A stretch of 58,801 nt of DNA, counting the filler, from Dugesia japonica (taxonomy: Eukaryota): assembly GCA_001938525.1 (NCBI GenBank). It is 6 parts of 6 records of this genome, joined end to end, with 100 filler letters (N's around TTAATTAATTAA, not from the genome) between each part and the next. Parts side by side here need not be neighbours in the genome. Positions count along the whole stretch, not along the records: positions 47,806 to 58,801 come from MQRL01616857.1; 5 more parts are not named here. One strand, written 5' to 3'. Positions 1 through 58,801 of this stretch are shown here, piece by piece (position 1 is the first letter of the stretch; every line of letters begins with the position of its first letter). Both the position numbers and the translations under genes were made by a program. The notes under the pieces were generated by a model. That model did not search any database. It saw only the letters and a program-made list of their open reading frames with translations, and was not told the origin of the DNA.

Positions 1-799
1 ACATTAGGCATAACATAAACGATGAATTTTTCATATTAATGCTTTAGACAGTGTATGTAAGTATAGGAAGTATATGTAACTTTTAATTGTCTATCTTTTT
101 CTTATTAAGGTGCGGTAATTTACGTGCCTGTGGCGGCCTACAGAAAGCCTTTGTTCTTTTAAACCGTAATTTCAACCGGAAGTACGCGGAAATTTAAAAT
201 TTCAAGATGACAGATCGTCTTGAAATTAAATTCTGCATCTATATCACTTTAAATTTGTTTCGTAGCATTTTCCTATTTTGCCCTAGGGGGGGGTGCGGCA
301 GTGCGGACACATCTGGAGTCGAAACGAAGCATTTTTCAAGCATAGTACTTTAGATAATGTATAGGTAACTTTTAATTTTAAGACGATTGGTAATAGTTTC
401 AAGTCGATATCTCAAAAAAAAATTTTAAATTCAAATTCAAATATTTTATTGATCCGATCATATTTTTCAAAAAATAATTACAGAACATAGCGACGCATAC
501 TCGCGCGCATCTTTTCCACTTTTCAAAACATCGATAGCATACACTTATTGACCTTGAGTTACTTTTTAAAAAAGTTTGAAACAAAAAAAAATTTTTTCAA
601 AAATAATTTTATCAAAAACATTTTTTCAAAACAAAATTTTTCAAAAAAAAATTTTTGTCAAAAAAAGTTTTTCGAAAAAAAAAATTTTCAAAAAAAGTTT
701 TTGTCAAAAAATATTTTTGTCACAAAAAAAAATTGACGAAAAAAATTTTCTGGCTAGGGGGCGGAGGGGGGTGAGGTAGTGCGGACATATCTCACTACT
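1..799. mobile_element. Polinton/Maverick-like terminal segment (right end ...CTCACTACT at 799)
   Basis: Reverse complement of 779-799 is AGTAGTGAGATATGTCCGCAC (AG-starting AGTAGT terminus typical of Polintons). Internal direct repeat CTAGGGGG...AGTGCGGACA at ~283-310 and ~753-790, and A/T-run low complexity at 560-750. It abuts and truncates the retrotransposon ORF at 801. Confidence 0.6.
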
Positions 800-800
800 C

Positions 801-1109
801 CAAGCCCATGTTCTTTGTCACTGCGGTTCCTCTTCGACTTTTCGCATTGGTCGTTACAATGATGTTATGGAACTTCTTGCGGACGTTGTCCGCCATAAGA
901 TGAGTTTCAGAGTTATTATTCACTGGTTATGTGAATTTGTGAACCGTACTAATCGAGTTGATTTACATCTAATTAATATGGAAAGGAGAAAGATGATATT
1001 GCTTGATGTGAAAGTTCCTTATGACACTTCTAAAAATATCAAATTGGCTAGAGACAACAAGATCAGGAATTACACACCGCTCAAGGAAGACATCAAACGT
1101 AATCTTTGA
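801..1109 (+). mobile_element. Non-LTR retrotransposon (R2/R4/NeSL-type, restriction-like endonuclease) C-terminal fragment
   Basis: Translation QAHVLCHC...IGRYNDV (end of CCHC finger plus RHN/RHD-like motif), then RVDLHL...LLDVKVPYD...ARDNKIRNY (PD-(D/E)xK RLE with K..Y motif). Confidence 0.75.
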
Positions 1110-10763: not shown

Positions 10764-11153
10764 AAAATTATAAAAGAAAAATAATTCAATTATAAAAACA
10801 CCAAATTTGCTGCTTTAAGGTTCCTTATTCTGAAATCCAAAATGTTTTTGCTTTTTAAAACGTTTCAAAAAATCGTTTTTCATAAATTTTAATTTAAATC
10901 TGATACACAATATTTTAAAAATGATCACATTAAAGCAAATAAATTTTTAATATGATTTTCTAATTTCTTCCTCACAACGCAATACTCTCCATAGTCAAAA
11001 TACATTTAATAAACCAACTCGGTCATTCAATCTATTGAATACATTCTATTCTCAATCCAATCACTCATGTCGACCAATACAATACCATTACTTAATCCAA
11101 TGAATTTACTTAATTCATTGAATACAATTAATTCAGTCAAAAAGTATGGTGCC

Positions 11154-11174
11154 GTGTACTACTATCTACCTACT
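11154..11174 (-). mobile_element. Polinton-like terminal motif (remnant)
   Basis: Revcomp AGTAGGTAGATAGTAGTACAC, 20/21 identical to the terminus at 50180-50200. Confidence 0.6.
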
Positions 11175-14250: not shown

Positions 14251-14284
<34 letters not shown>

Positions 14285-18207: not shown

Positions 18208-18278
<71 letters not shown>

Positions 18279-18370
18279 CCTAATTTCTAACAAACCATTT
18301 AGTTTTAATATACATCAATTAATTATGCATAATAAAATGTTTAAGGTTTGTTATAATTTTAAATATTTAG

Positions 18371-18549: not shown

Positions 18550-18622
18550 GTTAATAATATAATATTAATCTAATTTTCTTATTCTCACTAAATTTATATT
18601 TTCTATATATTTAAGAATTTTT

Positions 18623-18800
18623 TTTAAAATAAAAGCTTCGATTAAAATTGTTTTTTTTTAATTTGGTATTTGATAGCAATTGCTATCAAATACCACATTT
18701 TAAAAAAAATTGATTGAAGCTTTTATTTTAAATGAATTCTGTAAAACGATCAATGGTTATGTCCAACAATTATTCTCGCAATAATTGCAATTGTAAAATT
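18623..18800 (+). repeat. Small fold-back repeat family, copy 2 (perfect 32-bp central palindrome, no hammerhead core)
   Basis: TGGTATTTGATAGCAA|TTGCTATCAAATACCA at 18664-18695, arms extending to 18623/18732, followed by the shared tail GAATTCTGTAAAACGATCAATGGTTA...GCAATTGTAAAAT. Confidence 0.85.
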
Positions 18801-19177
18801 AAGAATTTTTGTTTAAAAAAATGTCAACTTTTCAACAAATAATTAATTAAAATTTCACACGTTAATAAAAATCACTTTAAAATTTACCGTTTTCTTATTG
18901 ATTTCAATTCAAATAAAACAGTCTTTTTAAAAATATAAAATGTTTGTTCATATTATCAAAAGTCTCTGAAAATAACCACTTGCAGTTTATATGTAATAAA
19001 TATTTTATTAGTCATGATGTTAGAATTTCAATAATCTTTGTCATATTAATTTTGGAACCAAGAATCTAATATTAACAAGTGAATATAAATAAAACAGATA
19101 GATATAAATTTCACTAAATTAAAAAGCGTATATCAAAACGGTGTTATTTTTATGACTTCAACCGTTTAGTAATAATA

Positions 19178-19277: not shown

Positions 19278-19880
19278 CATTACAAACTTTTTTCGATAAA
19301 TACAACGAATTAATTCGATTTTTAAGAACTGTCCTTGAACTAATTACAACTGATGACTACAAAATTATAGTCAAAGCAGACAAAACACGTTTTTGGTCTT
19401 TACGAAAGACCAACAATTCATGAAGTGGTGATCCTTACAGTTGACGAATAATTTAACTCGTGTTATATATTCTTCATAGCAAAAATGGTGATGTTCAGCT
19501 AGTCTCAGAAATTCATCACTCAAGCAGTTGTAGGACATCCAAATTTAAATTCGACCGACACATAAGTCCGTTTATACACTGTTCACCCCAACAATACAGA
19601 ATGCTTTTAGTTACAATTACTGTTAATCAATGTACGTAGACCGAGTAGGTCAAGTATGTGCCACTTATCGTTAAGGTTTCCAAGAATTGAATATTTTGGA
19701 AAATATTGCACATTGGGTCACTTCACTCGCTGATGCATCGAATACTGTTCAACCACAGCAAATACGCACGTCATTTGCAATAATATTGACTACGTGCTTC
19801 AATAAACAGAATTAAAATACAAATCCTTTCTTTCTTTGAGTAGCATTGCACCGCATGCCGGGTATTCGCTAGTCATAATT
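19278..19880 (+). mobile_element. Helitron Rep/helicase remnants (internally deleted)
   Basis: NELIRFLRTVLE..TDDYKIIVKADKT...PTIHEVVILTV...VSEIH, and RLYTVHPNNTECF*LQLLLINVRRP, typical of RepHel segments. Confidence 0.7.
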
Positions 19881-19949: not shown

Positions 19950-21195
19950 ATATATATACAACATGATCCAACAATAATTGAATTTTTCTATGATTAACAT
20001 TGACATCAGCTTCTCTTGAAGTAATAATCTAGTTAATGGTCCAAGGCATCGTGCTAAAGAGAAAAGTAAGTAATTTTTCTTCAGAACCCAAAATGTTGTT
20101 TGTAGTACGGTCCACAATGCATCCAGGTCATTGCACATAGATTTCTAGCTTCGTTTATTCAAAGAATGAAACAAGCCGAGATCATTAATGTTTAATTTTG
20201 TAGATTGAACATGCTGGTTCGTAACAGTGACGGTTGGAATTAAACTGTCCCCAAAATCCTTAAACTTTTGTGTGTTGTTTTTACCAATATGTGGATGAGT
20301 ATTATCCATTTGAATAAAAACGTTTTTGCAGCAGTGCATCTTGTTTGAAATTAGAGGCATGATTTTATTATACACCAGCTTGTAAAAGATTGCAGAAGTC
20401 ATTGTGCAATCGACTTTGTAAACATCCCCTTTTGTATGGTTTTTTGAATATCGCTGGGCTACGTGGTCTTCTTGAATCCTCCAAATGCCGATTAGACCGT
20501 TGAAATTATTTTCAGAATTCGGTTTGGCAACAGCAGTTATTATCATAATTTTAGGGATATTAGCCTTGCTTATTAAGAGTACATTCTTCTTTCAACTATT
20601 CTCGTGATATCTTTCATGACTGAAGGAATACAATTCAAAACATTTTTCAACAATGTCCACATAATTATCCCATGTATTATATCTGTGTTGTCGGCACAAC
20701 TTCAACCTTTTGATCATCTGTTAAAAGTGGGCATGTTCTTCTCAGTACGAATCAGAATTCTTCATCTTTAATTATTCTTTAAACACTAGTATTTGGAATG
20801 GCTGTATCTTTTGAAATGTCACATATGCTACTAGAGCGACGTTTACGATTGACATTTGTTACTGCTGCCACCCGTTCTTCGTTGTTTGCAACATAAGGTC
20901 TACCAGAGCCTCGTTTTCTTGCAATTGTATCACGTTCAAAAAAATTTTCCCTCAAATTTCTAACATAGTTTTTATTGACATTGAATGTCTGGCATAATTC
21001 TTTGACCGTTGAGTACTCTGGTTTCACCTTTCCTATCTTAAAAATTAATATCTCATAATTTAATAATATAATCATTTTTTCTTCTTCGGATAAAGTTGAC
21101 ATTTTAAACGTCTTCCTAAAATTAAAAAAGCTAGTTATAACAAAATTTAAATGACTTGATTGAATTTGATATATTGATAAAATTAATAAATCCAC
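19950..21195 (-). mobile_element. Tc1/mariner transposase pseudogene related to the DD39D (plant-mariner-like) group
   Basis: RKRGSGRP linker; MIITAVAKP...FNGLIGIW; FIQMDNTHPH...QSTKLNINDLGLFHSL, with 40 residues between the last two Asp. Confidence 0.8.
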
Positions 21196-21382
21196 TTTTT
21201 ATGTTTTGGAGGTAAGTATATTATTTAATTAGTTACTGATTTATTCTATACTTTTTCATTTATTTGTATTGTAATTTATATATAATTTACAATTTATTCT
21301 GTTTTTAATTAAATTTATAATATTTATAATCCAATATTTATAAAAGTATAAAATATTTTATTAAAATTCATTTAATTTTTAG

Positions 21383-23224
21383 ATGAATAAAAACGCTACA
21401 AATAAAGTTGCATCTACCTCAGGAATGACAGTAGACCATTTAATGAAGTGCAGTAAAAACTTTGATTTGATCAACTTTATTAATGTTACCAACAATAACA
21501 CTAACAATCATTCTATTAATATCAGTAATATGGCACTTTCATCTTCAGATGAAAATCATATTTCACAAATGTCTTCTAGTATCATCAAACCACTTTCATC
21601 GCCTCCGATAAATAATCAATTAGTACAGAAAAATCATTCACTGATAAATTCAGTTTCTACAAAAGATCCATCTTCAAATCGTCTTTGTTTACCAAGGCAA
21701 CGATCTTTCGATCAGGGTGGAGAAGGAAAATTGTCTTCATCTCAAGTTAAACAGAAACTTAAAGAATGCGTGTTAAATAAGAAAATAAGCAAACTTAATA
21801 AGTCTCCTATGACCGCTCCTTCTCCTCAGAATTCATTTGAATCTGAAGAACCACAAAGTAATCCAGTAGTTCCAACTAATCAACCGACGTCTGTCATGAG
21901 TAGTTATCCATTACCAACAAATAATGAATCCATAAGTATTTCTCAAGACGATTTTCCGATTCGTAAAACTTCATCTTTACCAAATTTAAAAGTTCGATCT
22001 GCTCTTAAGCAAAAAGCTCTTGACCGAAGACCCAGTCCTTTATCAAAACGGCGGTCGAAAATGTCATCTATTGAGCGTGGTAGCAATGGAACAACTGTCA
22101 GTGGACTTACTATGTATAATCAAAGTTCTATTTTAAATAGTGAAAGTTCAATGAGTAGTAATAATATAAATAGCAATAACAATAATCCCAATATAGCTTT
22201 ATCTCAAAGCAACCCAATTCCATCATCCCAAATAAGTTTTGGAAAATATCAACCTCACCTTTACGACAACGAAAGTGGTTCATCAATGCCCATTAATTTA
22301 TTAACATCTGGGCCATTCAAGTCCATAAATCCCACACCACAACCAGAATTATTTCAACCGAATTTTTCTTCATATCAGTTGCCGTTACAGGCTCTTTTCA
22401 GCTCTCAGTCACAGCTTATACCTTCATTTACTAGCTTACCAAATCTAAACCTTGCTCATTCATTATCCGCACTATTATTGGCAAATAAACCTTCAGAGTC
22501 TGTTGTTGATTTTAATCATCATAATCAAAACAATGACACCTCAATGTCTGTTGAAATGAAAGAAATAGATTCTTCATGCTCCCAATCTCCAGATGTTGTT
22601 ATTGATCCCAGTCTTGTTTCTGGTAATTCTTCAGCTACTTTACCATCATCTATCAATAAACTTATTCCTCATGGATATAGTCCTCGTAGAAATGTTAATT
22701 CGGGAAATTCAGTATCTGGTCGACCACGTTCTCATAGAATTTTAAATCGCACAAATTCAGCTCCTTTACCATTAGGTAATGGAGCAAATGCTGCTTCAGC
22801 ATTACAAATGGCAATTCAAGAACAAAAACTTTTGCTAGTAAAAGCACAACTACGTCAAAAAGTTTTACATCGAACCAATACTGGAAAAATCAATCCAGGT
22901 ACTGAAGAGTTTCAGATGTCAATGGATGGAAATAATGAGTTTGATTGGAAAAATGTTTGTACTCGTACATTGTCAGATAGTTTAATTACATCCAATGAAA
23001 AAACACCACAAAGGTCATTATCACTTGATGACAGCTCATCGGAATTTGATGTTGGACAACATATTTTATCCGCACCGTTTAGTCCGGATGCAAACAAATT
23101 GAACAATTCATTTCAATTTCGTATGCTTCCAAATCATTCCACATCAAGTGGATTTAATATTCAAACTTCAAACTCTGGTTCTATAAATAAACTTCCTTCG
23201 CCGATTCTAGAAGAAAAGATTCTT
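21383..23224 (+). CDS. HDAC4: Class IIa histone deacetylase (HDAC4/5/7/9 family), large N-terminal regulatory exon
   Basis: TTTTTAG acceptor and GTAAGT donor at 23225. SSQVKQKLKECVLNKK (MEF2-binding-like), DFPIRKTSSLPNLKVRSALKQKALDRRPSPL (14-3-3 site/NLS), SLPNL, HRILNRTNSAPLP. The catalytic domain is not in this contig. Confidence 0.85.
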
Positions 23225-23256
23225 GTAAGTTTTATTGAAAATACTGTTCAATTTTA

Positions 23257-23320
<64 letters not shown>

Positions 23321-28774: not shown

Positions 28775-31700
28775 ATGGAGCTTCCAATAAAATTAAATTC
28801 TTCATGGATTAGTACATTCAAAAATCTAAATGCCGATTTCGAATATGAATATAAACGAGATTATCTTCCTAATCAAATATACAATTTTAATGCTGTTATT
28901 CAACATGAATCTTCTCTGGAAAACGTTAATAATTCAAAAATGCATCTAGTAAATGATGAAAATAATATAAAATTTGGAGAAGGTTTACAATCATACACAT
29001 TAGGAAATAATGATATTGTTCATGATAGTAATAGTAATAATAGCAGTAATTATCATGAAAACTCGTCTACACCAAAAGATGATCAATCATTCAAAAAAAT
29101 TTCTAATGATAATCTGAATATCCAAGAAATATCAAGTGAGACTATTAATCAGGATTTGCGCAATAATGATTCTAGATTTGAAATTGAATTTGAAAATGAA
29201 ATTGAACCGGAAATTTCTATAACACTAGAAAATAACTTGAAAGTTGAAAATTTACAAAATTCTGCTTTAAAAACCCCCGATAGTGAAAATGAATGTNNNN
29301 NNNNNNNNNNNNNNNNNNNNNNNNNNNNNNNNNNNNNNNNNNNNNNNNNNNNNNNNNNNNNNNNNNNNNNNNNNNNNNNNNNNNNNNNNNNNNNNNNNNN
29401 NNNNNNNNNNNNNNNNNNNNNNNNNNACACAACTTTTTCAAAGGAAAATTGTCCAACAGAAATTAATGCAATCGATGATCAATCACGCAATCAAAGTCAA
29501 TTTATAAATGCTTGTTTTAATCCAAACGAAAGCAATGAAAANNNNNNNNNNNNNNNNNNNNNNNNNNNNNNNNNNNNNNNTGAAAATTTAGAAAAAGCCA
29601 ATGTTTTAAATGAAAATGAAAAATTCAATAAAATATATCCAAATACAAATGAATTTGAATATTTAAAAGAAAATACAAACAAAAATATTTCATATCAAAA
29701 TAAACATAAGCATAATGAAATTCAATCGATAGAAATGGAAATTGAAACCCCAGTGTTTATTAATCATGAACCGAAATTATACATTGCTAAAACTATTGAT
29801 TTTTCCACTATCAATGAAAGTGATCAATTGCTTCATGATAATGATTCTAATAAAATTGCCAAACCAATAAATAATGAACTTTTGAATTTAGAAAAAGATC
29901 TTGAAAATCTAAATGAAGAAATTCTAGAAACGGAAATTTTCCAAACAATTTCACCGTCTACATGTAATCAAAAATATATGCCNAACAATAAAGAATCATT
30001 TGAAACGAAATTAGATCAAATGAAAGATAATTTTGAAAATTATTTATCCGATGACAGTTACATGAATACCAACGTTTTACTTAATTTTCATGAAAATTTA
30101 ATAGTAAATGATGTTTCTCAAGAAATTATTGTTCCCATAAATAATATTAAAACAGAAAAGGATGATTCATTTACCGATGAAAATAACAAAGATTTAAACA
30201 GAAATAATAATAGAATTGAAAACAATGTTGTCAATCTAAATTTGGAAAATGAAAAATGTAATTTACTTAATTTGAATAAATCATTTTCTAACCCAATTAA
30301 AATCAATGATATTAGTGAAAGTCATTTAAATATCAATGAAAACAAACTTCATTTAAATGACCTTCTTAAACAAAATGAAAATGCTGACAAAGTTGAGCTT
30401 TTTGACAAAAGTTCTATTATTGATAATTCAGAAGAAATAAGTTTCGATCAAAGCTTAGAACCTGAAATTGAATTAAAAGAAAAAATGAATCCTATTGACA
30501 ATTTTTATGAGAATGATTTAAATGAAAATAAATATGATAACGAATTTGAATGGAAAACATCGAAATCTGTAATTCCAGATAATTTGAATTTTATTAAACA
30601 AGAAATAAATGAATTAAAAATAGAAAATGACTCTCATTTCGTAAGTGATTTTATGTCTCATGAAATTGATATTTCAAATAAAGAAAACAAAATTGATGAT
30701 TTCTTGAATATTGAAAATATAAATGATCAGTTATTGCCAATTCATAATTTCACGCCTGTTCAAAATGATGAAAATTCAATTATAAACAAAAATAATTTTG
30801 AATTNNATGGTAATTTGACATCTGAAAATTTAGTTAATGAAAATATTAACAATTCGTTTACTAATCCAAATGAACTCGATAATGATATAAATGAATATTT
30901 TAAAATAGTTCCAACGAATTTCAAAGAAATTAATGTAGAAATATCATCTTTTGTTCAAAATCCAGACGAAAATAAATGTTCATTTTTGGATGATTCTTCG
31001 CAAAATAGTTCAAATAATTATGAAAATGAAAATGCACATAAAATTAATTTTACCTACAAACAACCAATCGAAATTAAAGCCACTTTATTGGATCATTCCA
31101 AATCAGTCAATGACAATGTAGAATATGAACTCGATAATTCTAGTTGCAATTTTGAATTGAAGCTCAATCAAAATTTATCTCGTAAAGTTTCAGAAAATAA
31201 TTGGAAAGAAAAATTAAGTTCACCAAAAAATGTTTATGAAAAAGATCTAAATGAGAATGAAAATGATGATTTGATCAATCAAGCCCCTTTGGAATATAAA
31301 AATAAATTTAATGACAGTTATAAGAAAAAAATCAAAGTGAAACCAGAAGATAATTTTTTTTCCACGAATAAATTGTTCAAAAAACACGAAATGCCATGCA
31401 AAGAAAATAATATTGATTTTACTGTAAGTAATGATAACCAGTTATATTTGACTAATAATTTTCTGAAATGTAAAAATTTTGATAACAATTCAATGGATGA
31501 TATTAATAGCTATGTCTCTCCATCATTTCAAGTATCGGATACTTCACCATTAAAAAGTGATTTCGATAAATATGCTAGAAATGATCATTTTCAAACGTCT
31601 TTTAATTTGAATGAGAATAATGCTAACAATTTTGAAGAATCAGATAATCGAAAATCACTAAATAATAATATTAATACATATAAAATGAGTGACAAATTAA

Positions 31701-32326
31701 ATATGGGAAAACCAGATCGTCATTACCTAGAAGATAATAATGATGATGAGAAAACTATGAAATCTAATAGTACAATCTTTAAATTACCAATGGATTTAAA
31801 GTCAGACATGCAATTAACAAGTAATAAAATGAGGAATTATAGTGATACTTGTAATAATTTAAAACATAATCTAGATTCAAGTTACAATTATGACTCAACA
31901 AATTTAATGAGTAAAGGAAATTTCAAAAATAATTATTATCCTTCATCCCAAAATTTACTACATAATAACCAAATAAAATATTCCAAAGATTTATCACATT
32001 TGATGCTTCCAAATAAAAATAAAAGGGACATACACAATATAAATGAAAGTGTATTAGGTAATGAACAGCCCAAAGACCAGAATACGCAATTGAAGAACAT
32101 GAATACAATGGATTCATTTTCAGTTAAGGCAAAATATCAGCCGACAGTTCAAGTTAGGTTTGAAAACAATAAAAAAATGATTTATGAAAACAATGAAAAG
32201 AATAATATAATTGCTAATGGTAAGCCATTCTGTAAAAAATGCATGAAATTTCATTTTCCATCTACAAGTTATGACTCACTGAATTATCATAACATATCAA
32301 AACCATACTTGGGTAATAAAAATTTG
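28775..32326 (+). CDS. Large Asn/Glu-rich low-complexity protein of unknown function, ~3.55-kb exon
   Basis: ~1180-codon open frame in very AT-rich DNA, maintained across gaps; AG immediately before 28775; GTAAAT donor at 32327. No recognisable domain. Confidence 0.75.
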
Positions 32327-32399
32327 GTAAATTATTTTTGGTTCTATAATATTTAATCATTGAATTTATAATTATTATTTATATTAAATAAAATGACAT

Positions 32400-33968: not shown

Positions 33969-34330
33969 TCANNNNNNNNNNNNNNNNNNNNNNNNNNNNN
34001 NNNNNTTGAAATCACTCGATGGACCGCATAAGTTCGATGTCTCTAGTAAGCTTTTGTAATCTTTCCATGAGAAGAAAACATGAGAGAACATGAACTCGAT
34101 GGTCTTGTTAAATGGGCTGAAGAGGAGTAAAAACACTTTTGAATGTCCCTCATACTTCACAAAAGCTGCTATTTCTGAACATTTATGGAATGACTTATTA
34201 TCCATAATAATTATGACATGGTTCATTTTTTTCTCTGTCAATATTCCCGTCAACTCATTCATGTATTCCGAAAAGTAAATTTGATTTCCTGCTTCATTTG
34301 ATACTTCATAACAAACCATTCCCTCTTTAG
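33969..34330 (-). mobile_element. Tc1/IS630-type transposase remnant
   Basis: VIIIMDNKSFHK...FLLLFSPFNKTIEFMFS (degenerate LPPYSPFLNPIE). Confidence 0.75.
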
Positions 34331-34399
34331 TTTATGTGCGGCGAAATTTAAAATATTAGCCGCACAAACAACTCATACAAAAAATAGAAAATGTTTTAT

Positions 34400-35114: not shown

Positions 35115-35378
35115 AAATCATCTATTTCATCAAATTTACCTAGAAAAATAATTTCAAAAGAAAATAGTTTTGGTAAAGGTAAATTTGTATCCAATATTAA
35201 TACAGAACCTAGCATTTTGTCAAAATGTTATTCTAAGAAATACAATATGTCTAGCAATGATGTGATGGATTTGAATTCATCAATTAATTCGAATTGCAAC
35301 TTTATATCAAATGCTGATCAACCTCTAGAATTGCGAGTTTATTGTAGAGGTCGACTAATATATGAACCTTTGTTTTAA
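35115..35378 (+). CDS. Probable terminal exon of the Asn-rich protein
   Basis: Polypyrimidine-AG acceptor, phase 0 with 32326; 87 codons KSSISSNLPRK...DQPLELRVYCRGRLIYEPLF*; AATAAA ~50 nt downstream. Confidence 0.7.
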   Translation, partial: KSSISSNLPRKIISKENSFGKGKFVSNINTEPSILSKCYSKKYNMSSNDVMDLNSSINSNCNFISNADQPLELRVYCRGRLIYEPLF

Positions 35379-45520: not shown

Positions 45521-47705
45521 TTGTTAAAGGAAATTCAAGTTAGACGTGCCAAGTCAGTTAAGAAAAAATGCAAATCTAATCTATATATCAACTCAGAAGG
45601 AAATATTTGCTTGTCAGAGAGACTAGATTTCAACAAATCAACATCCCAATCCAGACCACCAATCATAGAACCAATCAAATTAAACAGTAGCCCAAGTGAC
45701 AAAGAGAACAAAACCAAAAGGAAACAAAATCTCGAGAGCCATCATTAAATACGGATATTGTGAAACGAAGTAGAAGATTATTTGGAGGAAATCGAAGACA
45801 ACGAAAACCTAAACATTAACATAAAAGAGTTAGAATCAGACAAAACAAATAACCTACAACAAGAAAAGGAAACTACTATAATAATAAATAAAACACCCAT
45901 AATAAAATTACAAAAAGCCCAGGATAATATGAAAAACATGTCAACAAAACCGAAAACTAACAAGTGGAATGGGAAATTAAATTCGACGGTGAATACTTTA
46001 GTGGAATACCTGAGAAACTCGATGAATTTATACAAAACTATGAAATGTATGCTAAAACCTGNGGATGGGATGACGAATCCAAAAGGAAGCGATTACCAGC
46101 ATATCTGACAGGAGTGGCCAAAGACATAGAGGAAATCCGTGACACATGGGTAAAGGTAGTAGCAATATTGACCGACAATTTCCAGACTCTGAAACTCACC
46201 GGACAGGATTTTGAACAATTCACCAATAGAAAACAACAACGAGGAGAAACTTACCAGGCATATATGATGGAGCTCAAAAGACGGGGCAAATTANNNNNNN
46301 NNNNNNNNNNNNNNNNNNNNNNNNNNNNNGCCATATTTTTAAACGGATTACGCGATGAAAACGCAAAGATCATGGTAAAACTAAGTAAAACCACGACTCT
46401 TCAAGATGCCCTGACAACACTACGAATAGTGTCAGAGTGACCAAACGAACGAATTTTCAAGGGCGAAGGTCAAACGTAAGAAGCTACCCCACTTATATCA
46501 GATTTTATACCATATATTCAATCTATGATGAAAGCCTGACCCCAGGGCAAGAACGGAACAACCGAAACCCTAAACTGAATTACCTAGAAGGAAACGGAGG
46601 AGGATTTAGCTCACAACGGAATAATTGGCAAAATAACCAAGACATGCAATGTAATGCATGTGGAAGAAGAGGACACATAGCCAGGTAATGTAGGAGCAAA
46701 AGCAATAATAACAACAACCGATTTTGCATTTATTGTAAGAAAACCAATCTTAATGTAGAAACCTGCTTCTTAAAAAATTCGACCACGTGTTATGAATGCA
46801 ACAGAAGGGGCCATATGGCAAAAGAGTGCCCCAAGGGGAATCAATCTAGTTACAATAACCGTAATCAAAACACGAATCTCGATAATCTAATGCAATATAA
46901 TGAGAGATTACGACAGCGGGTAAATCAAAATAAAGGACAGGTCAATCTGGTACAACAAAGCACATTCGACAACGTGTATAATAAANTCCAACAAGAAAAT
47001 TATTGGCTCAAATGGCAAAACCAAGACTTACAAGTGCAACAAGCGAGATTGCCAAAAAGAAACCTACTTAATGAACTACACAAGAACCAATGTAACATGA
47101 TTAAAATCCATAGACAAATTTACAACCAACACGATGAAACTACGAAAGTTACTGAGATGGAGCACAAAACATTGGTTAAGCTGCCCGTATATAATACAGC
47201 AAAACCTTTACGGGATAAACTACCATTCAAACCACCATATAAACTCCTGGATGATGGCGGAGTAGTAGAGGAAACTAAACCAATTNGGCTAATGAAGACA
47301 GATTTAGTTAAACTTAATACTTTATGGATTTACCCAGAATTGGGATGTACCCTCATACAAAAAGATCTAGATCCATTTAAAGCAGCTGAAAAAACGCGAC
47401 CAATAATGGGAGAAGCCTCGGATAAATTGAAAGCTTTTAAAAAACGAACCCAAATAGCGACCAGTAAACATTGAGACCCATAACCGACCAATCGGGTATT
47501 GCGGAAGCCTCTCATAAAACCAAGAGAACTCCCACTACCGCACAAGAATGGGAACGAGAAATATTCGGATCACCATCAGTGGATGAATCTTCAGAAAGCG
47601 AAAACGAGTTAGTAATTATCAAATACTCACTACCTGCAACGAAAGAGGCAACACGGGAATAAAGTATGAGACCAGTAAAGTAGATTTAGATGAGGAAGAT
47701 GCACT
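45521..47705 (+). mobile_element. Gypsy gag pseudogene (capsid region plus three zinc knuckles), truncated by contig end
   Basis: FSGIPEKLDEFIQNYE...GWDDESKRKRLPAYLTGVA...RKQQRGET...FLNGL; CNACGRRGHIAR*C, CIYCKKTNLNVETC, CYECNRRGHMAKEC. Confidence 0.88.
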
Positions 47706-47805: not shown

Positions 47806-47877
47806 AACGGTTACCATGGCAACGGGGGGACCCCCCCCTTGACCTACTTTGTCCTGGTGTCCTCATATCCTACTACT
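47806..47877. mobile_element. Polinton-like right terminus inserted in a pPolB gene
   Basis: Revcomp AGTAGTAGGATATGAGGACAC; GC-rich subterminal sequence; directly abuts truncated pPolB. Confidence 0.65.
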
Positions 47878-47879
47878 GA

Positions 47880-48275
47880 GATCAGCTACCTGATACTTCA
47901 AATTATGGTAAAGATCATGCCCTTTATAGTAACAGTATGAACTCAGTTATAGGGGAATTTAAAGATGAGAATAAAGGAAAGAAGTATCAAAAAAGAGTAT
48001 TTTTGAGACCGAAATGCTATAGCCTGCTTGGAGATAAGAACAGCATGAGAGCCAAAGGCATAACATTGAAGAAAACGGAAATTTCTCACCAGTCTTACCT
48101 TGACTGTTATAATGAGAACAAATCTGTCTCAGTAGAGCAATTCAGAATAACATCTAAAAACCATCAGCTCTATAGCATTAAGTCGAAAAAATTAGCGCTT
48201 ACTAATAGAGATGATAAGCACGTATGGGTAGGTAAAAATAATAGTATCCCATATGGTCACTGTAGTATTAAATAG
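47880..48275 (+). pseudogene. Polinton/Maverick protein-primed DNA polymerase B, C-terminal fragment
   Basis: DTSNYGKDHALYS..NSVIGEFKDE...FLRPKCYS...RAKGI...YLDC...RITSKNHQLYSI...KLALTNRDDK...IPYGH. Confidence 0.88.
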
Positions 48276-50200
48276 TTTTTCCATAAAACCACACATTCGA
48301 TACAGCTTGGTACCAAAACCTCAAACAAAAGTATTTATTTTGTTTATAAATGTTATTTTTAATGATTTATATTTAGATTATAATGAGAAAAGAGAAAAAA
48401 AACATTGTGAACATATAACCGATCCTCTTAAGGTACAAAAATTGTATATTGATGCATTTATTTGTAATAAAAGTTGTTATTTCATTGTTTGTCTTATTAT
48501 TTATTCATTTATAAACATATCGCAAACATGCATTGTGTATGACGTCAGAATATTCACGAAAAAGATTTTTACTTATAAGTTCTTTTTATATATATGGAAA
48601 CGCTACATACTTTTATGATTTTGAATAGAAAACGAATGTCTCTAGTAACATGTTTTTTATAGAAACCATTCATCACTAATGTTTTTTTTTAGAAAATGTT
48701 TTATTAAAAATTGTAACGCTAATGAGATTTTTTATTAAAAATTGCATCGTTAATATGTTTTTTAAAGAAAATTATCACTAGTAATATGGTTTTATAGAAA
48801 CGTTTTATTTGAATATTTTATCATGTGAATATCCCAAAGACTCCCCTCTTTGAAGTTATTTTTTTGGATAGATATATTTGATAATAAAAATATCACATAG
48901 ACTCCCCTCTTTGAATATTTTATCATGTTAATTTTATTTAAATTTTAGACTGCCCAATATCTTACAATAATATCAAAAAATATAAAGAATGCACAATATC
49001 ATACATAAATAGGAATGCAATACAGCAACACTTGCCTGGAAATTTCAATGAATGCAATAGGCATGCGACTCAGATCCAATACAACAACACGTGCCTGAGA
49101 ATTTTTTAAACTACTCAAACCTCGCAACCATAGCAGTAATCTAAAGAAAACCTATTCCGCGTAGCGTAACTATGTAAATAATACAAACTATACATGGTAA
49201 CTAAGTAAATACTCGGTAACTATGTAAAAAATTATATTTTATTCATTTCCTATTACCATAATTACAATAATTTCAATTATGATAATATAAAATTAAGCAA
49301 TCAATATATTTATTGATTGTTTAATTTCATATTTACTTAATTGCATAAAAAATTAAAATTGGAGAATTAAAAATGGAGAATTTAAAAATGGTGAGTTAAT
49401 TTCTTTTATATGTTAATTTAATGTAAATTTAGGTAAATCAAATAAAACGTTCCATTATTATATGGTCTATTATATTTAAAGGTTCCATAGTAATATCGTC
49501 TATGATATTTAAAGGTTCCATTAATATGGTGAAAAAATGTGTTAAAGATGTTTAATATGTGCTAAATAATATAAAAAATGTCATATTTTGAATAAGAAAC
49601 AGTTGACTTGAAATTCCTGACCATTTTGCGGATCTGAGTCTAGTCAACTATTGACGATGATGCCTGATTGTNNNNNNNNNNNNNNNNNNNNNNNNNNNNN
49701 NNNNNNNNNNNNNNNNNNNNNNNNNNNNNNNNNNNNNNNNNNNNNNNNNNNNNGAGCTTAGCCTAGTTAAAACTACGCAAGCTAATCGATAAGTTCAATT
49801 ATGAACGGACTCGAATTAGATGCTAAAAACTTTGATGGATTCGCTCCGTCGGACTGTACATGTCGGAAGAAGTAATGTATTGGTATGGAAGGAAAACAAG
49901 ATCCGATAACCTCCCTTATATATTGAGTGACAACCAGTAAAAAAATTCATAGATCACTCAAAATCCGAGTGATCTACAGAAAAAAATCATATATCACTCA
50001 AAATCCAAGTGATCTACTAAAAAGAATTTCTAGATCACTCATAATCCACCTGATTTACTCGAAAAATTTCATAGATCCCAAAAAAAATCACCCAAAATCC
50101 GATTGAAANNNNNNNNNNNNNNNNNNNNNNNNNNNNNNNNNNNNNNNNNNNNNNNNNNNNNNNNNNCCAGGGTGATCCAGTGTGCTACTATCTACCTACT
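48276..50200. mobile_element. Polinton subterminal region and right terminus (50200)
   Basis: Follows pPolB; clusters of short repeats (48640-48920, 49940-50108); ends ...TATCTACCTACT. Confidence 0.65.
49940..50108. repeat. Tandem array of 40-41-bp units with internal hairpin
   Basis: Units start at 49950, 49990, 50031 and 50072; unit 1 TAGATCACTC-AAAATCC-GAGTGATCTA is a perfect 10-bp stem. Confidence 0.85.
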
Positions 50201-50895
50201 CTTGCAAGAAGAATAGTGAAAGAAAATCAAAACTGTTGGGAGAAGACGAATATTGGGATTACATTTTGGAAAAAGAACTTATTAATATGAAAGATGTGTT
50301 ATACTTTGAATTCGAAATAGCCACCCTAAATTGGGAAGAGCCATGTCCATACAGTCTAATGCAGAAAATTATTATTCAATACTTTCCATGATTTTAGTTT
50401 GAGATTATATAAATTGTAGTTGGTTATAAAATAAATTTTAATGTAAACAGTTATTTTCTTTTCTTTAGTAATGTATAAGAAATATGTCAAATTAAAATAT
50501 TTTCAAATAAACAAAAAAAACAAAATTTCTATGAAAATTTTTCAAAAAAAGTTTTAATTAAAGTTTTAAATTAAATTTTAAAAGTAATGTTTCCGTGAAA
50601 GGGGGGTACTATCAATGACCTTGAAAGTTTTCTTAAAATATATAAAAAAATTTGAAATTACCAAAAATAAATTTTTAAGTAATGTTTTCGCGGGGGGTAC
50701 TATTTTAAGTGATGTTTCCGTGGGAGGCAGGGGGTTTTTGTTCTGACTCATCAAAAAAATTTTAATGGGTGGTACCTTTGACTCATCACCCCCTCCAAAA
50801 AATTAGGACACCCTGACTCACCACCACTTCCTAAATTTTTTTTGATGACTCATCGGGAGGTAGGCCCTAGTTTGGTGCGCTCTTATCTACCTACT
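50201..50895. mobile_element. Second Polinton right end (ORF fragment, repeats, terminus at 50895)
   Basis: Truncated ORF 50202-50391; AAGTAATGTTT.CG..GGGGGGTACTAT repeats; four TGACTCA; revcomp terminus AGTAGGTAGATAAGAGCGCAC. Confidence 0.65.
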
Positions 50896-51233
50896 CTTAT
50901 ATTATTTAACAATAAGAAAAATTTTAATAAAGCCTTAAAAAATAATTCTAGTTCAAAAGTTTTAAAAAACAGTAGAACTTAAGAGATAGTAAGGATAAAA
51001 CAATCAATTAAAATAAACAAAATGCAATAAACGGAAGAAAAATACTTTATAAAAATGAATATTAGCCACAAATCAAAATAACTATGAATAAAGGTTAAAA
51101 TAAATAATAAGTAAAGAAAATGGATTATTTACGAAATTGAATTTAATAACATCATAAAGTGCTGATGAAAGTCTTTATTGACACTATACATGAATCAGAT
51201 GTACATAAAATGAACTTAATAACAAAAGATCAA

Positions 51234-51400
51234 TTAAGTTTTAAACATTGATAAAATATTGAGATGAACATCTGAAAATGCAACAATTGCACATCCTACA
51301 CCTCCATCATGATTAAGAAGCTGGCTCATTTCCAACCATTGCTGAGATCTAGGATTAAAACATTCCATTGATTTTAGATTTCCTGTTCCATCAAATCCTC
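51234..51400 (-). CDS. KLHL18: Kelch-like protein (KLHL18-like), terminal exon
   Basis: GGFDGTGNLKSMECFNP...NHDGGVGCA...* (cf. KLHL18 HEGGVG); AG acceptor; 47-nt upstream intron. Confidence 0.8.
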
Positions 51401-51447
51401 CTAGAAAAATTTAAATTAAATACATGTGAAATAATTTCCCAACTGAC

Positions 51448-51604
51448 CAATTGCAAAAATTTCACCAAATGTACTTATCAACGACATACGAGATCTAGGA
51501 ACTTTCATCGATGATACAAAAGTCCATTGATTGGTAATTACATTAAAAATTTCTACAGACGATAAAAAATTGACGCCATCATAACCACCAGCAGCATATA
51601 TTGA
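51448..51604 (-). CDS. KLHL18: Kelch-like protein (KLHL18-like), exon
   Basis: SIYAAGGYDGVNFLSSVEIFN...QWTFVSSMKVPRSRMSL; canonical splice sites in phase. Confidence 0.85.
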
Positions 51605-52515
51605 CTAAAATAATTTAATCAAACGCGATAAATATAAATTTTAAAAAATAAGTAACAAAAACTTAGTTTTGTGGAAAATATTTAGATAAATCATTTCATA
51701 TTATTCAAAAATCTGATTTAATATACGTTTTCTCTAAGTAAATAGCTGTAGTGTTTTTTTCATAATTTAAGATATGAAAATGATATTGTGGTGGTTTAAA
51801 ATAATATGCAGTTTCATTAAAATTAGATTTGTATTAGTAGGAATTATATTGCCTTTCAAATACATGCGCATCATCATTTTAAGGCAAAGGAAGCCTGCAC
51901 ATTGTATCTTTAAAACAATCTTGCAGCCCTTCGTTATCAGTCCATAAGTGTGTTCTATTACTATTACTTCAGTACACATTTTTATGTTATTAAATTTCGA
52001 GTTGGTTAAATGTAAATTCCATGCACACATTAATCTTGTTTTAATATTGAACAGAGAACTCAACGGTTATTCAAATATGTATTACCTTTAAAAATAATTA
52101 TACTGCCAACACCAAATTTTCATTAAAATAAAATCTACCATGAATATTGTAAAATAATTAATTATTTATATATATATATATATATACACCATACACTTCA
52201 GCTGTTCCTACATCGCTCTGGAGAGTCTGTTGGCTTCGATAGGATCTCTTTCACAATTAAATCACAAAAATTAAAATAAGATATTAAACATAAGAATAAA
52301 TATACGAAAAGAATAAATAATTAAGAAATTAAATCAAGAGATCCTTACGATAACAAAGTCTAGTATAAAATAAGTAAGGTGTTTAGACACAGGATCATCT
52401 CAATTCTAAACAAAATAATGAAAAATGAAAAACTTATAAAACTGAAAATTAATATTTTTTCAATACAATAAAAAGTATATAAAAAATTATCTCATAAGTA
52501 GAATAATGGTTTAAC

Positions 52516-52720
52516 TTGATTTAAAACTGCTACTCCATGTCGACAACGCCTACTCAACATGGGAGTGACAAAATCCCAACATTTCATAACTGGATTAAAG
52601 CATTCCACCGAATTATCAATTGCTAATCCATTATGACCACCTATTGCATACAATTTCTGTGATAAATGAACCACACCTGTAGCTGACCGACACTCTAGCA
52701 TAGGAGGAATGACTTTCCAT
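52516..52720 (-). CDS. KLHL18: Kelch-like protein (KLHL18-like), exon
   Basis: WKVIPPMLECRSATGV...LYAIGGHNGLAIDNSVECFNP...PMLSRRCRHGVAVL. Confidence 0.85.
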
Positions 52721-52766
52721 CTATAAAATTAATAAAACTGGAAAATGAATTCGCTAGAAAAGATAC

Positions 52767-52986
52767 CTATTTAACTTCGGACAATATTCTTCACAACTTT
52801 TTAAAGCTATAGTTCCGTCATAACCACCACAAACATATATTTTATCATTCATCATTGTTGCACCCAATGCACTACGGTTACAATTCATATTTGCCACAGA
52901 ACTCCATTTCATGGTTTTAGTGCTAAACACATCGACATGTGATAAACGTCGAGATCCATCGAAGCCCCCGATAACATAAATGCAAT
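52767..52986 (-). CDS. KLHL18: Kelch-like protein (KLHL18-like), exon
   Basis: CIYVIGGFDGSRRLSHVDVF...MNCNRSALGA...IYVCGGYDG; 46-nt downstream intron. BTB/BACK exons not identified. Confidence 0.85.
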
Positions 52987-53138
52987 CTAAAATTTAGATG
53001 AATTTTTTAACAATTTTAAGTATCAATAGTCAAATTTTAACAACTTATATAATATTATTTAAGACTTAGTAGTTTAAGATGTTTTGTCTACATATTAAAT
53101 TTTCGAAGTTATATGGTATAGTATAATACATTTAATAT

Positions 53139-53850
53139 CAATGATGTACAATCTTTGGCCCGCAATTTTTGCATGCATGGCCCGCGAGTTTGAGTAAAAT
53201 TGATATAAAATATTGGGAAAATCACCATCATTAAAATAATAAAGACAAGGAATATTAAAATCTTATAAATTTCGTTAAAAGAAAATTTTAAAAAACAGAT
53301 AATATTAACGTGTTAAATTGCCGAAGTAAATTAAACGTTTTCTAGCATATACATTAAATCTTTACTGTAAACTCGCAAGATTGATTTCATCGTCGAATTA
53401 CTTTAGACCAGCGTTTGTCAACATTTTCATTATTGAAAATTGGTAGAAAAAAAAAAATTTAACATAATTCGAAAAAGATAATTACATAAAATTTATTTAT
53501 TTATTTTATCACCGGTGAAATTTTTTGAAGAAATCCACTGTTGAGTAACAGTCCATCAACATGTTCGCTACCTACTACGAGTTAACTCGAATGTCAAAAT
53601 TTTTTTTTGCGCCGGCTGCGAGTTATATCGTAGAACGTCTTTTTCATTATCTACGCCACACAATTAAATTCATAGTATATTCATGTTCTCGTATAATCAA
53701 TAAAACAATTAAAAATTATCTGGAATCAATATCTTACCAATAAATGTTTTGTAGTTTTGTATTACAATTAAATAAAATTATTTGGCGTGGTGGACTCGCT
53801 TTTGAAAATGTCGCTCAGCAGCGAACGTGTTATCCATATCGAACATTTTG
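53139..53850 (+). mobile_element. hAT transposon remnant
   Basis: Terminal-like CAATGATGTACAATCTTTGGCCCGC with repeated GGCCCGC; hATC-like APAASYIVERLFHYL. Confidence 0.55.
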
Positions 53851-55561
53851 AACAAACGATTAATAAAATAATTTAAGAATAACATGAACTTCGTAAATAA
53901 ACATAATAATAAGATATTTATCTTTTTTAATATAAATTTGGTAATTAAAAATTACTAAAATAGTAATAATTTTAACTATATAATAATATATGATTAATTA
54001 AATACCAAAAATGAAATTTATCAATTTAATTCNATTTTCGCAAATATTTGTTGTGGATATTTAGTGGAATTACTTTGAACTAGTTTGTTTTTCTGTCAAT
54101 GATTGTAAGATATTTGTGCCCGTCATTTGGTAGTAATGGCATATATATTAAAAATATATCTACATTATTATTTCGAATGCTTCGCTACTGGGGATATTGA
54201 CCTTTTCGATTTTTATGTTTTTTGTTACCTTGTTTTTCTGGCAGCTTGAACATGTTTTGACATATATTTTTAATTACTGACTTGAAAATTATTATTATTC
54301 TTATAAATATTATTATTTGTATAAAAAATGTTTGAAAGATTATGATTTCGGTTGATTGAACAAAATTTTTTCCAGTTCTAAAAAATCAGTCAACCGGATG
54401 ATAGTTTTTAAATTTAAATTTCAAAGGTTCAGCAAGCAGCAAAGTGATAAGTTACAAAATGTTGCTGCTAGATGATAGAGCACAATGTGAATTTTTATTA
54501 TAAAGCGGCAAATAATAATAAGCAAAAAAATAATGTGAATGATTTTACAATGCTATCGGGTGGTTATTGTTCTACGACGTGTGCTGGATTTGAAAAAATG
54601 TAAGCGTCCTTAAAAGATGTATAAAACCCGATGATAAATGCAGCAGACCAGTTTAGAAGTAAAATTATAAATCATTACAACGTTTCAAAGATGCATAAAA
54701 TGGAATAGAATTCCTACAAAAATGTAAATATGACAAATTAAGTCGCCAACAAAACAGCTATATAAGCGAAAGCCAAACAACACAAAATAACTAAAAGCTT
54801 AGAACGTAGACGTAATTTCGTAAAAATCATATTAAAGTCTAAGCAACTTTTAAATTATTACTTTGAATATTACATCGAGGGTGAGAACAAATTAATACTA
54901 TTAATTCTAAGAGAATATCAATTTAGCAACAAAGCAATTTTCTATGAATTTTACATAGAATTAATTGTTAATTACCTTTCATCACCACTTCTGCGAGATC
55001 ATCCACCAGCACAGAATAAATGGTACGAACTAAAATCTATGTTTGTACTCGGCCAAAACAAAATGTGATATATTCCTAATAGACCGTAAAAAACTATTTA
55101 TTAATTATTGGCATGGTTCAATTGCCAACAGTTTAGGATTTTTAGAAAGTAAATCAGTTTCAACTTTCAAATAATTTGAAAATAAAATTTATTTAGACGA
55201 AGAAATTTTTAAATAAAATTATTATCGAGTATAATCTAAGAAATTACAACAATGAATATTTGAAACAAATTTGATGGACTATATTGAACTATATAAAAAT
55301 TGTTAATATTCCGACCAGAATATAATTAGAGCCTTTCACAACTTTTCCGATACTAATTGGCTTCGCGATCAAAAAAGTATATAAAGTATGTGCCATAGTT
55401 TGCAGACACTCACTGAATTGTTATTTTCTCGATTTATTATAATGTCACATCATCATGTATTGATTTTGTAAATAAATATGTTTCACAATTTTATCGTATA
55501 TTACGTGTTTAAACCTATTTTCATCGATTTAAATTATTCATGCCTTTTTAGGTTAAAGAAA

Positions 55562-56530
55562 ATGGAAGAGAAATGGCTATTAGAACCGTAATTAAATTTC
55601 ATTGGAAAAGAGGAATAAGTGCACGAAAAACAGTCGTTGAAATTTATGACGAAGAAGGCCAGGGAACCTTTGATCATGTTGCAGTATCCATTATATTCAA
55701 ACGCATTTCTAGTGGAGATAGTCTTTGTGATAAATCACTTTCAGGAAAACGGACGCTGGAACCAAAAGTTCTACGCAAAATCGTATGAGGCAATCTGAGA
55801 AATAGCACACGTCGATTTTCACATGACTTTAGGACTTCAAAATCATCCATACATCGTCACATTATCCTTATCGGGAAAGTGTACAGAGACTGTAGACTTG
55901 TACAACATGATTTAATTCCTTCACAAGCATAACGTCATGTAAAAGTGGGCCATAAACTGCTAAGCAATGCCTAGAACAACCATTTCCTTAACTGAATTGT
56001 CACCTGCAATGAAAAATGGATCGTGTACCACAATCCTGATATGAGAAGGCAATGATTGTACTCTGGTCAGTTGGTAAAAACTATCGGCAAACGAAAACGG
56101 TTCAAACAAAATTTTATGTTATGTGCTTCATAAAACTATGAAGTCTTGCTGCACATCGAATTAGTTTCAGATGGAGAAAGAATTAGGCCATATCTTTACT
56201 TTAAATAACTACAAAAAATTATTGCAATTCTGTTTTCTAGTCAGCCATGAACAAGTTCTTCTGCAACAAGACAACATACCACCGCACGTCGATCGAACAA
56301 GTTGCCAAAAAGTTGAAGACCTGGATGGCATCGAATTCCTACCTCATTAAGCTTACAGCTCGAACCCAGCACCTTCTGGTAACTAAATGTTCAAAACCAT
56401 GGCACATTTCTTATGAAACTGACAGTTTGAGAGTATTCACGAGGTTGAAACTGGGATTAGAGTATTTTTTGCTACTACATGGTATCGCCGTGGAATTTTA
56501 AAATTGGATGAAAGATAAAAAAGAACATAA
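55562..56530 (+). mobile_element. Mariner transposase pseudogene
   Basis: IRTVIKFHWKRGISA...; LVQHDL; IVTCNEKWIVY; LQQDNIPPH; AYSSNPAPS; multiple stops. Confidence 0.85.
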
Positions 56531-57119
56531 TTAATTGTATTTCGAATATTAATTATGTTTGCATTTTTTTATGATTTTGATAAAATTTTGTCAATATAAA
56601 GGCTGTTTTAATTTTAAATATTTATTGCTTAATAACTTTTAATTGCTTATTTAATTTTACATATTCAATAATTTGAATTTTGATATATTTAAAAATTATT
56701 ATTAATAGTTAAATTTAAAGTCTCACCAGTCTCTATAAATTGTTTATTGATTATTACAAAACTTTTCTTAAAAAATAAAAATATGAAATAAAAATTCACA
56801 AATTTCAAACAAATAATCTGAGAAATCTTAATAAANNNNNNNNNNNNNNNNNNNNNNNNNNNNNNNNNNNNNNNNNNNNNNNNNNNNNNNNNNNNNNNNN
56901 NNNNNNNNNNNNNNNNNNNNNNNNNNNNNNNNNNNNNNNNNNNNNNNNNNNNNNNNNNNNNNNNNNNNNNNNNNNNNNNNNNNNNNNNNNNNNNNNNNNN
57001 NNNNNNNNNNNNNNNNNNNNNNNNNNNNNNNNNNNNNNAAACTAATTTTAATATTAAACATAAAAATTAAAAAATCTCAGACATCCGAAATTCATGAATC
57101 GATACTCACAATTATAATT

Positions 57120-58045
57120 TAAATATATAAATAATGAGGAAATGATGGATATTTTATATGGAGCCAAATATTTTACTATCATATATTTTGGTAATTCTTA
57201 CTATAGTAGAAGTAACATATGACTCAAAATGTAAAACTGCATTTTCATCAAAAGGTGCATAATATTATTTAAAAGAATGCCATTTGGAACTGCAGCTGCT
57301 CCTGCTACTTCTCAGAAATTGATGAATAAGGTTTTAGGTCTGTTAAATTGGAAGAAAGCAGTGGATTACTTAGATGATATTTTAAGTTTTCCCGAAACTA
57401 ATAAAGAACACTATAAGATAATTGTTAATTTTTTGAAACGTATAAGAAACAGTTTAAAAAAAGTCCATCAAAATGTCATTTCATGAAAAACGAGATAAAA
57501 TGTCTGGGTCGTATTATTAATTCAAAAAGATTTTATACTGATAATGCAAAAATTGAAGCAATTTTTAATTTTGATACACCAAGATGTGTTACAAAAGTTA
57601 AGAAGTTTTTTATGTCTCGCAAATTATTATAAGACATTTATAAAGGATTACACAAAGTATTCAAAACGTTTAGAAAATCTATGTTGTAGTAGCTAGAAAG
57701 AAATATACTGGACAGATGAGTGCAAAATTCCTTTCAAAAATTTGAAAGCTAAATTAATGAAAGCTCTAGTTTTAAAATTTCTGAATTATTCTAAAGAATT
57801 TATATTGGATACTGATGCCAGTTTTGATAGAAAAGATGCAGTTTTAAGTCAAATTGATAACAATGATAAAGAAAGAGTTATGGCTTTAGGATCTAAAACC
57901 ACGAGTAAACACGATTTGGGTTATTGCATTACCAGGAAAGAACGTTTGACGATTGTTTATTTCACAGAAAGAGATTTCAATTAAGAAATGATCATAAAGC
58001 AATAATTTTTATACTGAAAACTAAAAGACCAATAACACCCCAATG
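57120..58045 (+). mobile_element. Gypsy RT/RNase H remnant
   Basis: RMPFGTAAAPATSQKLM, YLDDIL, FILDTDAS...AVLSQ, YCITRKE, NDHKAI. Confidence 0.88.
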
Positions 58046-58149
58046 TATTCAAAATATTATTAATCGCTTTATTGCGAATGTATTTTTTTTCATTAATATT
58101 GTTAAATGTAGTTTATATTCTAATGATTTATTATTTTATATTAATATAG

Positions 58150-58502
58150 GCACCGCCGGAACTGACTTCTATCTTTATCGGATTGTCCACAATTGATTGC
58201 AACGAAAAGATGAAGATATTAATTGTCTGAAAGAACGAATATCAGGATTGGAGCAGGAAGAGCAAACAATACTGAAATATCAGATCCAACACTACAATGA
58301 ACTGGCAGGGTTGCTCGAACGGTTAACTCAACACCTGAAAGATGCCCCAACGATCAACAAACAGTGGACCTATGAGCAACATGCATAACCCGAACAACAA
58401 AGTAAACGAATAATCACCAAAGTATATGCGGAAATTCCACAGTTGGTTCCGTACTCGGACGTCGACGATTATGAAGGAAGCCAAACAGCGACAAGTGTCT
58501 AA
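58150..58502 (+). pseudogene. Decayed coiled-coil ORF fragment of unknown origin
   Basis: After an AG acceptor: LYRIVHN*LQRKDEDINCLKERISGLEQEE...HA*PEQQSK...SV*. Confidence 0.4.
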
Positions 58503-58739
58503 ACCGTTCGAAGGAGTTTTGTTGTTTCAGCAATAAAATTTCTATTAAATATTTTCGTTGTTATTATATGAAGTCTCTCGATCATTTGTACCATTCCTTC
58601 CTGTTTAATTAACAAAAAAGAAGAAAAGGATCATAATTAATCAGTGCTATTCAGTATTATTAAGAACATTATTAATTTTTTACTATGTTGAAATCAGATA
58701 TAGAAAATTGAATTTAGTCAAGATGCGCGTAAATCTTAC

Positions 58740-58801
<62 letters not shown>
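58740..58801. repeat. (AAT)n microsatellite (also ~14210-14477, 18208-18275, 23256-23320, 28513-28580, 38291-38452, 39478-39632)
   Basis: Perfect AAT/ATT runs, usually next to N gaps. Confidence 0.95.

Follow-up and report, generated by a model that had tools for sequence, protein, structure and literature searches.

Do otherwise dissimilar ends of Polinton-like elements carry a common recognition sequence and, if so, which protein reads it? The question is raised by a 58,801-nucleotide stretch of Dugesia japonica DNA (the window), which is composed of six contigs of 8-11 kb each, joined by artificial N44-TTAATTAATTAA-N44 spacers. Five sequences of 21 bases, which an earlier note had interpreted as a motif common to Polinton-like termini, were all recovered, every one on the minus strand (Table 1). 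They come, as the note had it, from three different contigs: 1 (1-8132), 2 (8233-19177) and 6 (47806-58801). The window is AT-rich (17-38% G+C per 2 kb) and holds AAT microsatellites, pieces of host genes and abundant transposon debris. This debris includes DDE_3 pieces and, where contig 5 ends (45961-47474), broken zinc-knuckle-bearing (PF00098) gag-like frames of an LTR retrotransposon; other pieces we take to be mariner-like, hAT-like, Penelope-like and Helitron-like, judging by their motifs only.

Table 1. Positions of the ends (numbered along the window), of the sequences around them and of other features in the window
Feature	Position	Strand	Remark
Damaged sixth copy, end-1 type	288..314	-	lacks the outer 7 bases; retains 8-21 with a single change in the GATA box
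Array of 15-16 bp A-tract/T-tract repeats	582..749		inside end 1
End 1, AGTAGT-type terminus, GATA (9-12) and CAC (19-21)	779..799	-	junction fixed by cut retrotransposon frame
Probable non-LTR retrotransposon frame (3' portion), the target of end 1	800..1109	+	zinc knuckle and restriction-like endonuclease
Rab-like Ras-family host exon	6307-6639		
18-bp repeats	11088..11135		inside end 2
End 2, AGTAGG-type terminus	11154..11174	-	placed by motif
HDAC4-like host exon	21383-23257		two distant vertebrate matches
Long low-complexity host exon	28775-32356		possible LIM start at its end (by eye)
Other transposon debris (DDE_3 and motif-assigned pieces together)	8484-8843, 20145-21198, 34008-34331, 9069-9700, 15020-16660, 19500-19800		
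14-bp near-palindrome	47810..47823		inside end 3
End 3, AGTAGT-type terminus	47857..47877	-	inserted in Polinton polymerase gene
C-terminal 131 codons of Polinton-type protein-primed DNA polymerase B	47878..48275	+	best E 5.6e-53
Highly repetitive non-coding stretch	48674..49913		between polymerase piece and end 4; borders are those of depth bins
41-bp repeat array	49940..50077		inside end 4
End 4, AGTAGG-type terminus	50180..50200	-	
Short frame, like one 65-aa protein (P0012, E 5.9e-9)	50201..50388	+	outside end 4
Four TGA(C/G)TCA sites, 32-35 bp apart	50744..50852		inside end 5
End 5, AGTAGG-type terminus	50875..50895	-	followed by low-copy flank

Numbered from the outermost base inward, all five sequences agree at columns 1-5, 9-12 and 19-21, and four of the five at columns 8 and 18. 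The fixed positions that had been claimed for the two inner boxes, GATA at 9-12 and CAC at 19-21, thus hold in every case. All start with AGTAG, the end hexamer being AGTAGT in two and AGTAGG in three. None of the 12 columns compared outside base 1 is common to all five, which is background level, and no column from 22 to 34 agrees in all five, so that the sequence inward of the motif is indeed dissimilar. The exact pattern matches these five places and no others in the window, and a scan allowing up to two mismatches returned the same five sites without a sixth, as compared to a mean of 0.32 matches in 100 dinucleotide shuffles, none of which reached five. Of the 76 AGTAG sites in the window, five have GATA at 9-12 and all of these have CAC at 19-21; CAC without GATA occurs at one further site (19644), which was rejected as an additional end as it lies inside a frame that is presumably Helitron-like, judging by a motif.

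Ends 2 and 4 (11174 and 50200) are identical at 20 of 21 bases and end 5 (50895) has its first 12 bases in common with both, so the five ends represent three independent types. The GATA of ends 2 and 4 may alternatively be seen as belonging to a run of TAG repeats. The pattern was derived from the matches themselves, and in a post-hoc test, where 76 16-mers drawn at random from the window were searched for their best pattern common to three, 21 of 150 trials scored as well as the real ends. A four-sequence version (117 of 150) was uninformative, as its filter removed the related ends. For three types, the motif alone is not significant, and the case for it therefore rests on boundary evidence. 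Three ends can be regarded as placed independently of the motif, on the strength of a gene break in two cases and of a less firm step in depth in the third; for these, the probability that at least 7 of 16 columns agree by chance is 5.6e-4. Moreover, when a matrix was trained without each type in turn, no other AGTAG site left in the comparison outranked the held-out ends in any of the three splits.

The frequency with which an equally good triple turned up in random sets would suit a pattern that arose by chance and was selected from repeats rich in A and T, and the matches recovered elsewhere fit that explanation as well. In viral contigs, three exact patterns matched 17, 18 and 22 loci; since none of these 57 was near a Polinton gene, as judged with the proteins of six relatives, they were treated as chance, and the bacterial matches examined were chance too. 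An inverted pair of exact motif matches in a bacterial assembly (G001) was rejected, being one site in a fold-back contig (C94) where the repeat runs on past the motif; the gene downstream of this site we take to be LysR-like from its sequence. A further contig of this assembly (L137:1-3200) is chimeric and combines a eukaryote-like Polinton polymerase with Tc1-like pieces.

The strongest boundary evidence is the position of two of the ends relative to genes. At end 1, a retrotransposon frame is cut inside its zinc knuckle, with the break at 799|800. The frame is 63-65% identical to the proteins P0016 and P0017. Both of these extend further upstream and have the zinc knuckle in full, and the likeness to the window stops at the edge of the motif. 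Its assignment to the non-LTR retrotransposons is probable on the basis of its domains; P0017 has a weak zf-RVT match. At end 3, the polymerase frame is cut at 47877|47878. In three samples, there are contigs whose alignment begins precisely at 47878 after 99 unrelated letters, hence other copies of the polymerase gene lack the insertion. The coincidence, within a codon, of two motif ends with independent gene breaks, together with the ranking of the held-out ends, largely rules out the chance reading, which we consider extremely improbable. The junction at end 5 is bridged in all four sequencing runs compared (one of which may be the source of the window itself), and the summed contig depth drops from 272-471 in the bin before it to 13-21 after it, a hint given that contig depth is not equal to copy number. 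A further boundary hint is provided at end 4 by two listed contigs that end at 50198 and 50199. The likeness of the adjacent frame to P0012 begins around 15 bases beyond this end, and the frame had no match among 79 Polinton loci. Since both genes are broken at the AG edge of the motif, the reverse reading of the element, from the CAC side, was rejected; it would have suggested the ends of CACTA, Transib or Chapaev elements. These observations support the conclusion that the places are ends of mobile elements, and the motif is a real, sharply bounded end signature in one genome.

All motif matches are right ends, and three of them follow in a row within 47806-50895. The three probably represent nested insertions of Polinton-type elements in one another, and since nesting leaves three independent orientations, their common direction is unremarkable. 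Neither a left end nor an inverted partner nor a duplication of the target was found in the window, in which 72-3090 bases are present inside each end before the contig starts; nor was any upstream hexamer followed by a credible left end. The only Polinton gene in the window is the polymerase piece, which lies outside end 3, as its target. Six of the nine protein matches of this piece carry PF03175, and the polymerase tail is multi-copy: at each of the sites listed, a single run contains 34-83 variant contigs. Seen from end 4, the piece lies 1.9 kb inside and points outward to it, contrary to the orientation in the relatives L025 and L037, so that it need not belong to that end. The DNA in between is repetitive: its main stretch contains internal inverted and tandem repeats and has a summed contig depth far above that of the flank, and the 41-bp array is joined to end 4 across an N gap by contigs that cover 49994-50199 and 50031-50198.

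Do the ends belong to Polinton/Maverick elements? Of the earlier designation 'Polinton-like', the mobile-element nature (two gene breaks) and the Maverick hexamers stand, and a Polinton gene is not demonstrably enclosed by any of the ends. Polintons are 10-25 kb in length, with long terminal inverted repeats and a 6-bp target site duplication, and carry genes for a protein-primed polymerase, an integrase, an ATPase and a capsid between their ends; the contigs of the window measure 8-11 kb. The closest known termini are those of the 5'-(AGT)2//(ACT)2-3' class of Maverick/Polinton elements (Barreat and Katzourakis 2021, PMC8097293; Kapitonov and Jurka 2006, as cited there). According to Barreat and Katzourakis, (AGT)2, (AG)3 and (AC)3A are Maverick end motifs, the first being the commonest (PMC8097293). 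The terminal data found in the supplement consist of hexamers, AGTAGT appearing 713 times, AGAGAG 339 times and AGTAGG 37 times. For the tuatara, 20 of 25 rows among the matches listed there have AGTAGG//CCTACT ends, and many of the AGTAGG rows show identical 6-bp duplications (PMC8097293). Considering that AGTAGT and AGTAGG both figure in this table of vertebrate Mavericks, both window hexamers are documented Maverick ends. The window ends thus resemble Maverick/Polinton termini in the AG start, in both hexamers, in the random-looking target flanks and in the presence of a Polinton polymerase in the same genome; they differ in having two inner boxes at fixed spacing across dissimilar ends. 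In the accessible text of PMC8097293 the end motifs are 6 bp long, and the information further inward falls 'to a lesser degree'. In keeping with the earlier note, whose author knew of no such consensus, a description of the inner boxes was not found in the accessible literature on Polinton/Maverick termini and origins; earlier descriptions, Repbase or Fig. S2 of PMC8097293 may show them. The motif is a new detail of a known system.

The flanks bear on the type of element as well. The five outer hexamers are all different, none begins with TA or TTAA, and they obey no TWA rule. Fixed TA, TTAA or TWA targets are characteristic of Tc1/mariner, piggyBac, Kolobok and Harbinger, and cut-and-paste transposons with such targets were rejected as candidates, no fixed target being present in the five hexamers. 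A different DNA-transposon superfamily that starts with AG and has a two-part transposase site, with the polymerase piece as a bystander target, would account for the fact that Polinton genes are not demonstrably found inside the ends, and sub-terminal repeat arrays occur in several cut-and-paste superfamilies. The documented Maverick hexamers, the flanks free of TA, TTAA or TWA targets and the abundance of Polinton polymerase copies in this genome argue against it, and we hold this explanation to be unlikely. On sequence grounds the five ends are very probably Polinton-type ends, and they appear to be the right-hand termini of Polinton/Maverick elements, or of their gene-less derivatives, that fall into three or more families. 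The code had been called cross-family; this holds for the three end types, within the scope of one genome.

Relatives of the polymerase were sought in other data sets. The polymerase and capsid queries had no relatives in the viral contigs, and the polymerase query had none in the phage set. In metagenomes, 79 Polinton polymerase loci (325 kb with 460 AGTAG sites) yielded no full motif and none had a recognizable end: the 9 longer loci that were checked lacked long inverted repeats, and inspection by eye of 9 end stretches, from 8 loci, revealed no clear end. The missing motif therefore speaks neither for nor against the code. Thirty of 90 AGTAG places in the accessible supplement of PMC11414722 were viewed and none could be identified as a Polinton end; the searches with end sequences gave no matches in the accessible supplement of PMC10748475. 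Beyond the polymerase, the Polinton proteins of the 79 loci gave one weak match in the window (35232-35351). The polymerase of L025 and L037, two near-complete relatives, faces the interior of the element, with its capsid, integrase and ATPase genes, and not a nearby end. The capsid genes, which had no Pfam match, are presumably such. The relatives encode an rve integrase. Some of them carry additional genes: a TBP-like gene (PF00352) is found at L025:10318-10764 (E 2.3e-17) and L037:11330-11779, with similar frames in L045, L067, L073, L074, L078 and L085, and a ubiquitin-conjugating enzyme (PF00179, E 1.7e-12) at the far end of L037 (13480-13977). An endonuclease VII-like domain (PF02945) occurs in the N-terminal part of the polymerase in P0004 (residues 278-317), and also in P0009.

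As to the protein that reads the signature, we consider the chances evenly balanced that the 21-base core is the origin recognized by the protein-primed polymerase-terminal protein complex of the element. This reading, the leading one, is suggested by the same three tiers being seen in the window ends and in the adenovirus origin. In adenovirus, pTP-Pol binds bases 9-18, as the earlier note had stated and as PMC2794291 confirms; host-factor sites lie further inward. Initiation by protein-primed polymerases takes place at an internal base and is followed by sliding or jumping back; for adenovirus, TP-CAT is formed at bases 4-6 before the jump (PMC4974454). By analogy, bases 1-5 (AG-T-AG) would constitute the short repeat that is needed for protein priming, GATA and CAC would form a fixed core kept across families, and a family-specific repeat array would extend inward from base 22. 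The complex would dock on the core, start opposite base 4 and jump back three, and the integrase probably grips the same 21 bases. The boxes start ten bases apart, one helical turn as had been proposed, and therefore lie on about one face of the helix. On AGTAGG a three-base jump can carry only A or AG; considering that AGTAGG ends are stable here and in the tuatara, the jumped intermediate would be two bases at most. The ends resemble the adenovirus origin in the 3-base tip repeat, in a conserved block from base 9, a likeness of position only with no evident sequence in common, and in the variable factor-like sites further inside. They differ in that the core is split (9-12 and 19-21), in that AGTAGG ends permit no three-base intermediate, and in that the elements integrate.

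The inner tier varies from end to end. Inside end 3, the near-palindrome resembles what we take to be an RFX (X-box) site, and a G/C hairpin is also present. The four TGA(C/G)TCA sites inside end 5, presumably AP-1-like, were reached in none of 5000 shuffles, for a motif and a stretch that were both picked by eye. A hairpin common to the five ends was not found (one z of -2.3, four unremarkable). An A/T-tract array resembling that of end 1 lies around 3 kb upstream of a metagenomic Polinton polymerase (L073:860-1220), with no matching end motif.

The same tips could also be read in terms of integration: the core would then be mainly an attachment site for the retroviral-like integrase, and priming would need the first five bases only. 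A conserved span of about 20 bases is the length gripped by DDE integrases and transposases, and two-part ends, with a tip motif and an inner box within the last 20 or so conserved bases, are usual in DDE systems. The rve integrase of the relatives fits this explanation, as does the consideration that gene-less derivatives must retain their integration signals. On the other hand, the first box starts at base 9, like the adenovirus polymerase-terminal protein core. Retroviruses, Gypsy and Ginger elements have CA-3' ends (those of Ginger read TGTNR, PMC2836005); the window ends are CT-3'. An integrase site fits the core almost as well and is the closest rival, although we regard it as rather unlikely to be the main role; the evidence suits polymerase and integrase alike as reader, and both readings may hold.

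A reader might be superfluous if the ends were Polinton ends that are alike because they still bear the traces of common descent within one local clade, and if the boxes were under no particular selection. The data come from one genome with three types, two of the ends are nearly identical and the post-hoc significance is weak, all of which would suit such descent. Neutral descent would decay evenly, however, whereas the identity between types comes in patches, 8 variable columns alternating with 7 invariant ones, and immediately inward of base 21 no more than 2-7 of 13 columns agree. Given that the variable positions 6-8 and 13-17 lie between invariant boxes, protein contacts fit better than uniform descent, and we consider leftover descent decidedly improbable. 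We infer that the boxes are under selection, that they have a reader protein and that a jump-back step exists. In its widest form, the core-origin reading would make AG-T-AG/GATA(9-12)/CAC(19-21) the conserved origin core in animal Polintons of many phyla that together form a broad clade, with the polymerase-terminal protein as reader, a two-base jump-back intermediate, and inner, family-specific arrays of host-factor sites that serve as exchangeable auxiliary origins; we put this forward tentatively, as an outcome that is possible and on balance improbable.

Polinton replication has hitherto been argued from sequence alone, and the accessible literature defines the ends by six letters. A minimal core of 21 bases would provide a short substrate for a first biochemical test of how Polinton copying starts and of integration, and would allow a direct comparison with the adenovirus origin. 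The motif could also serve as a probe for ends and gene-less passengers in fragmented genomes. The window holds five ends in ~57 kb, on three of its six contigs; if it is typical, the genome is very rich in Polinton-type ends. Should the boxes be confined to the families of this genome, the value of the motif would mainly lie in annotation. If the code is true across phyla, one helper could mobilize every family that carries it.
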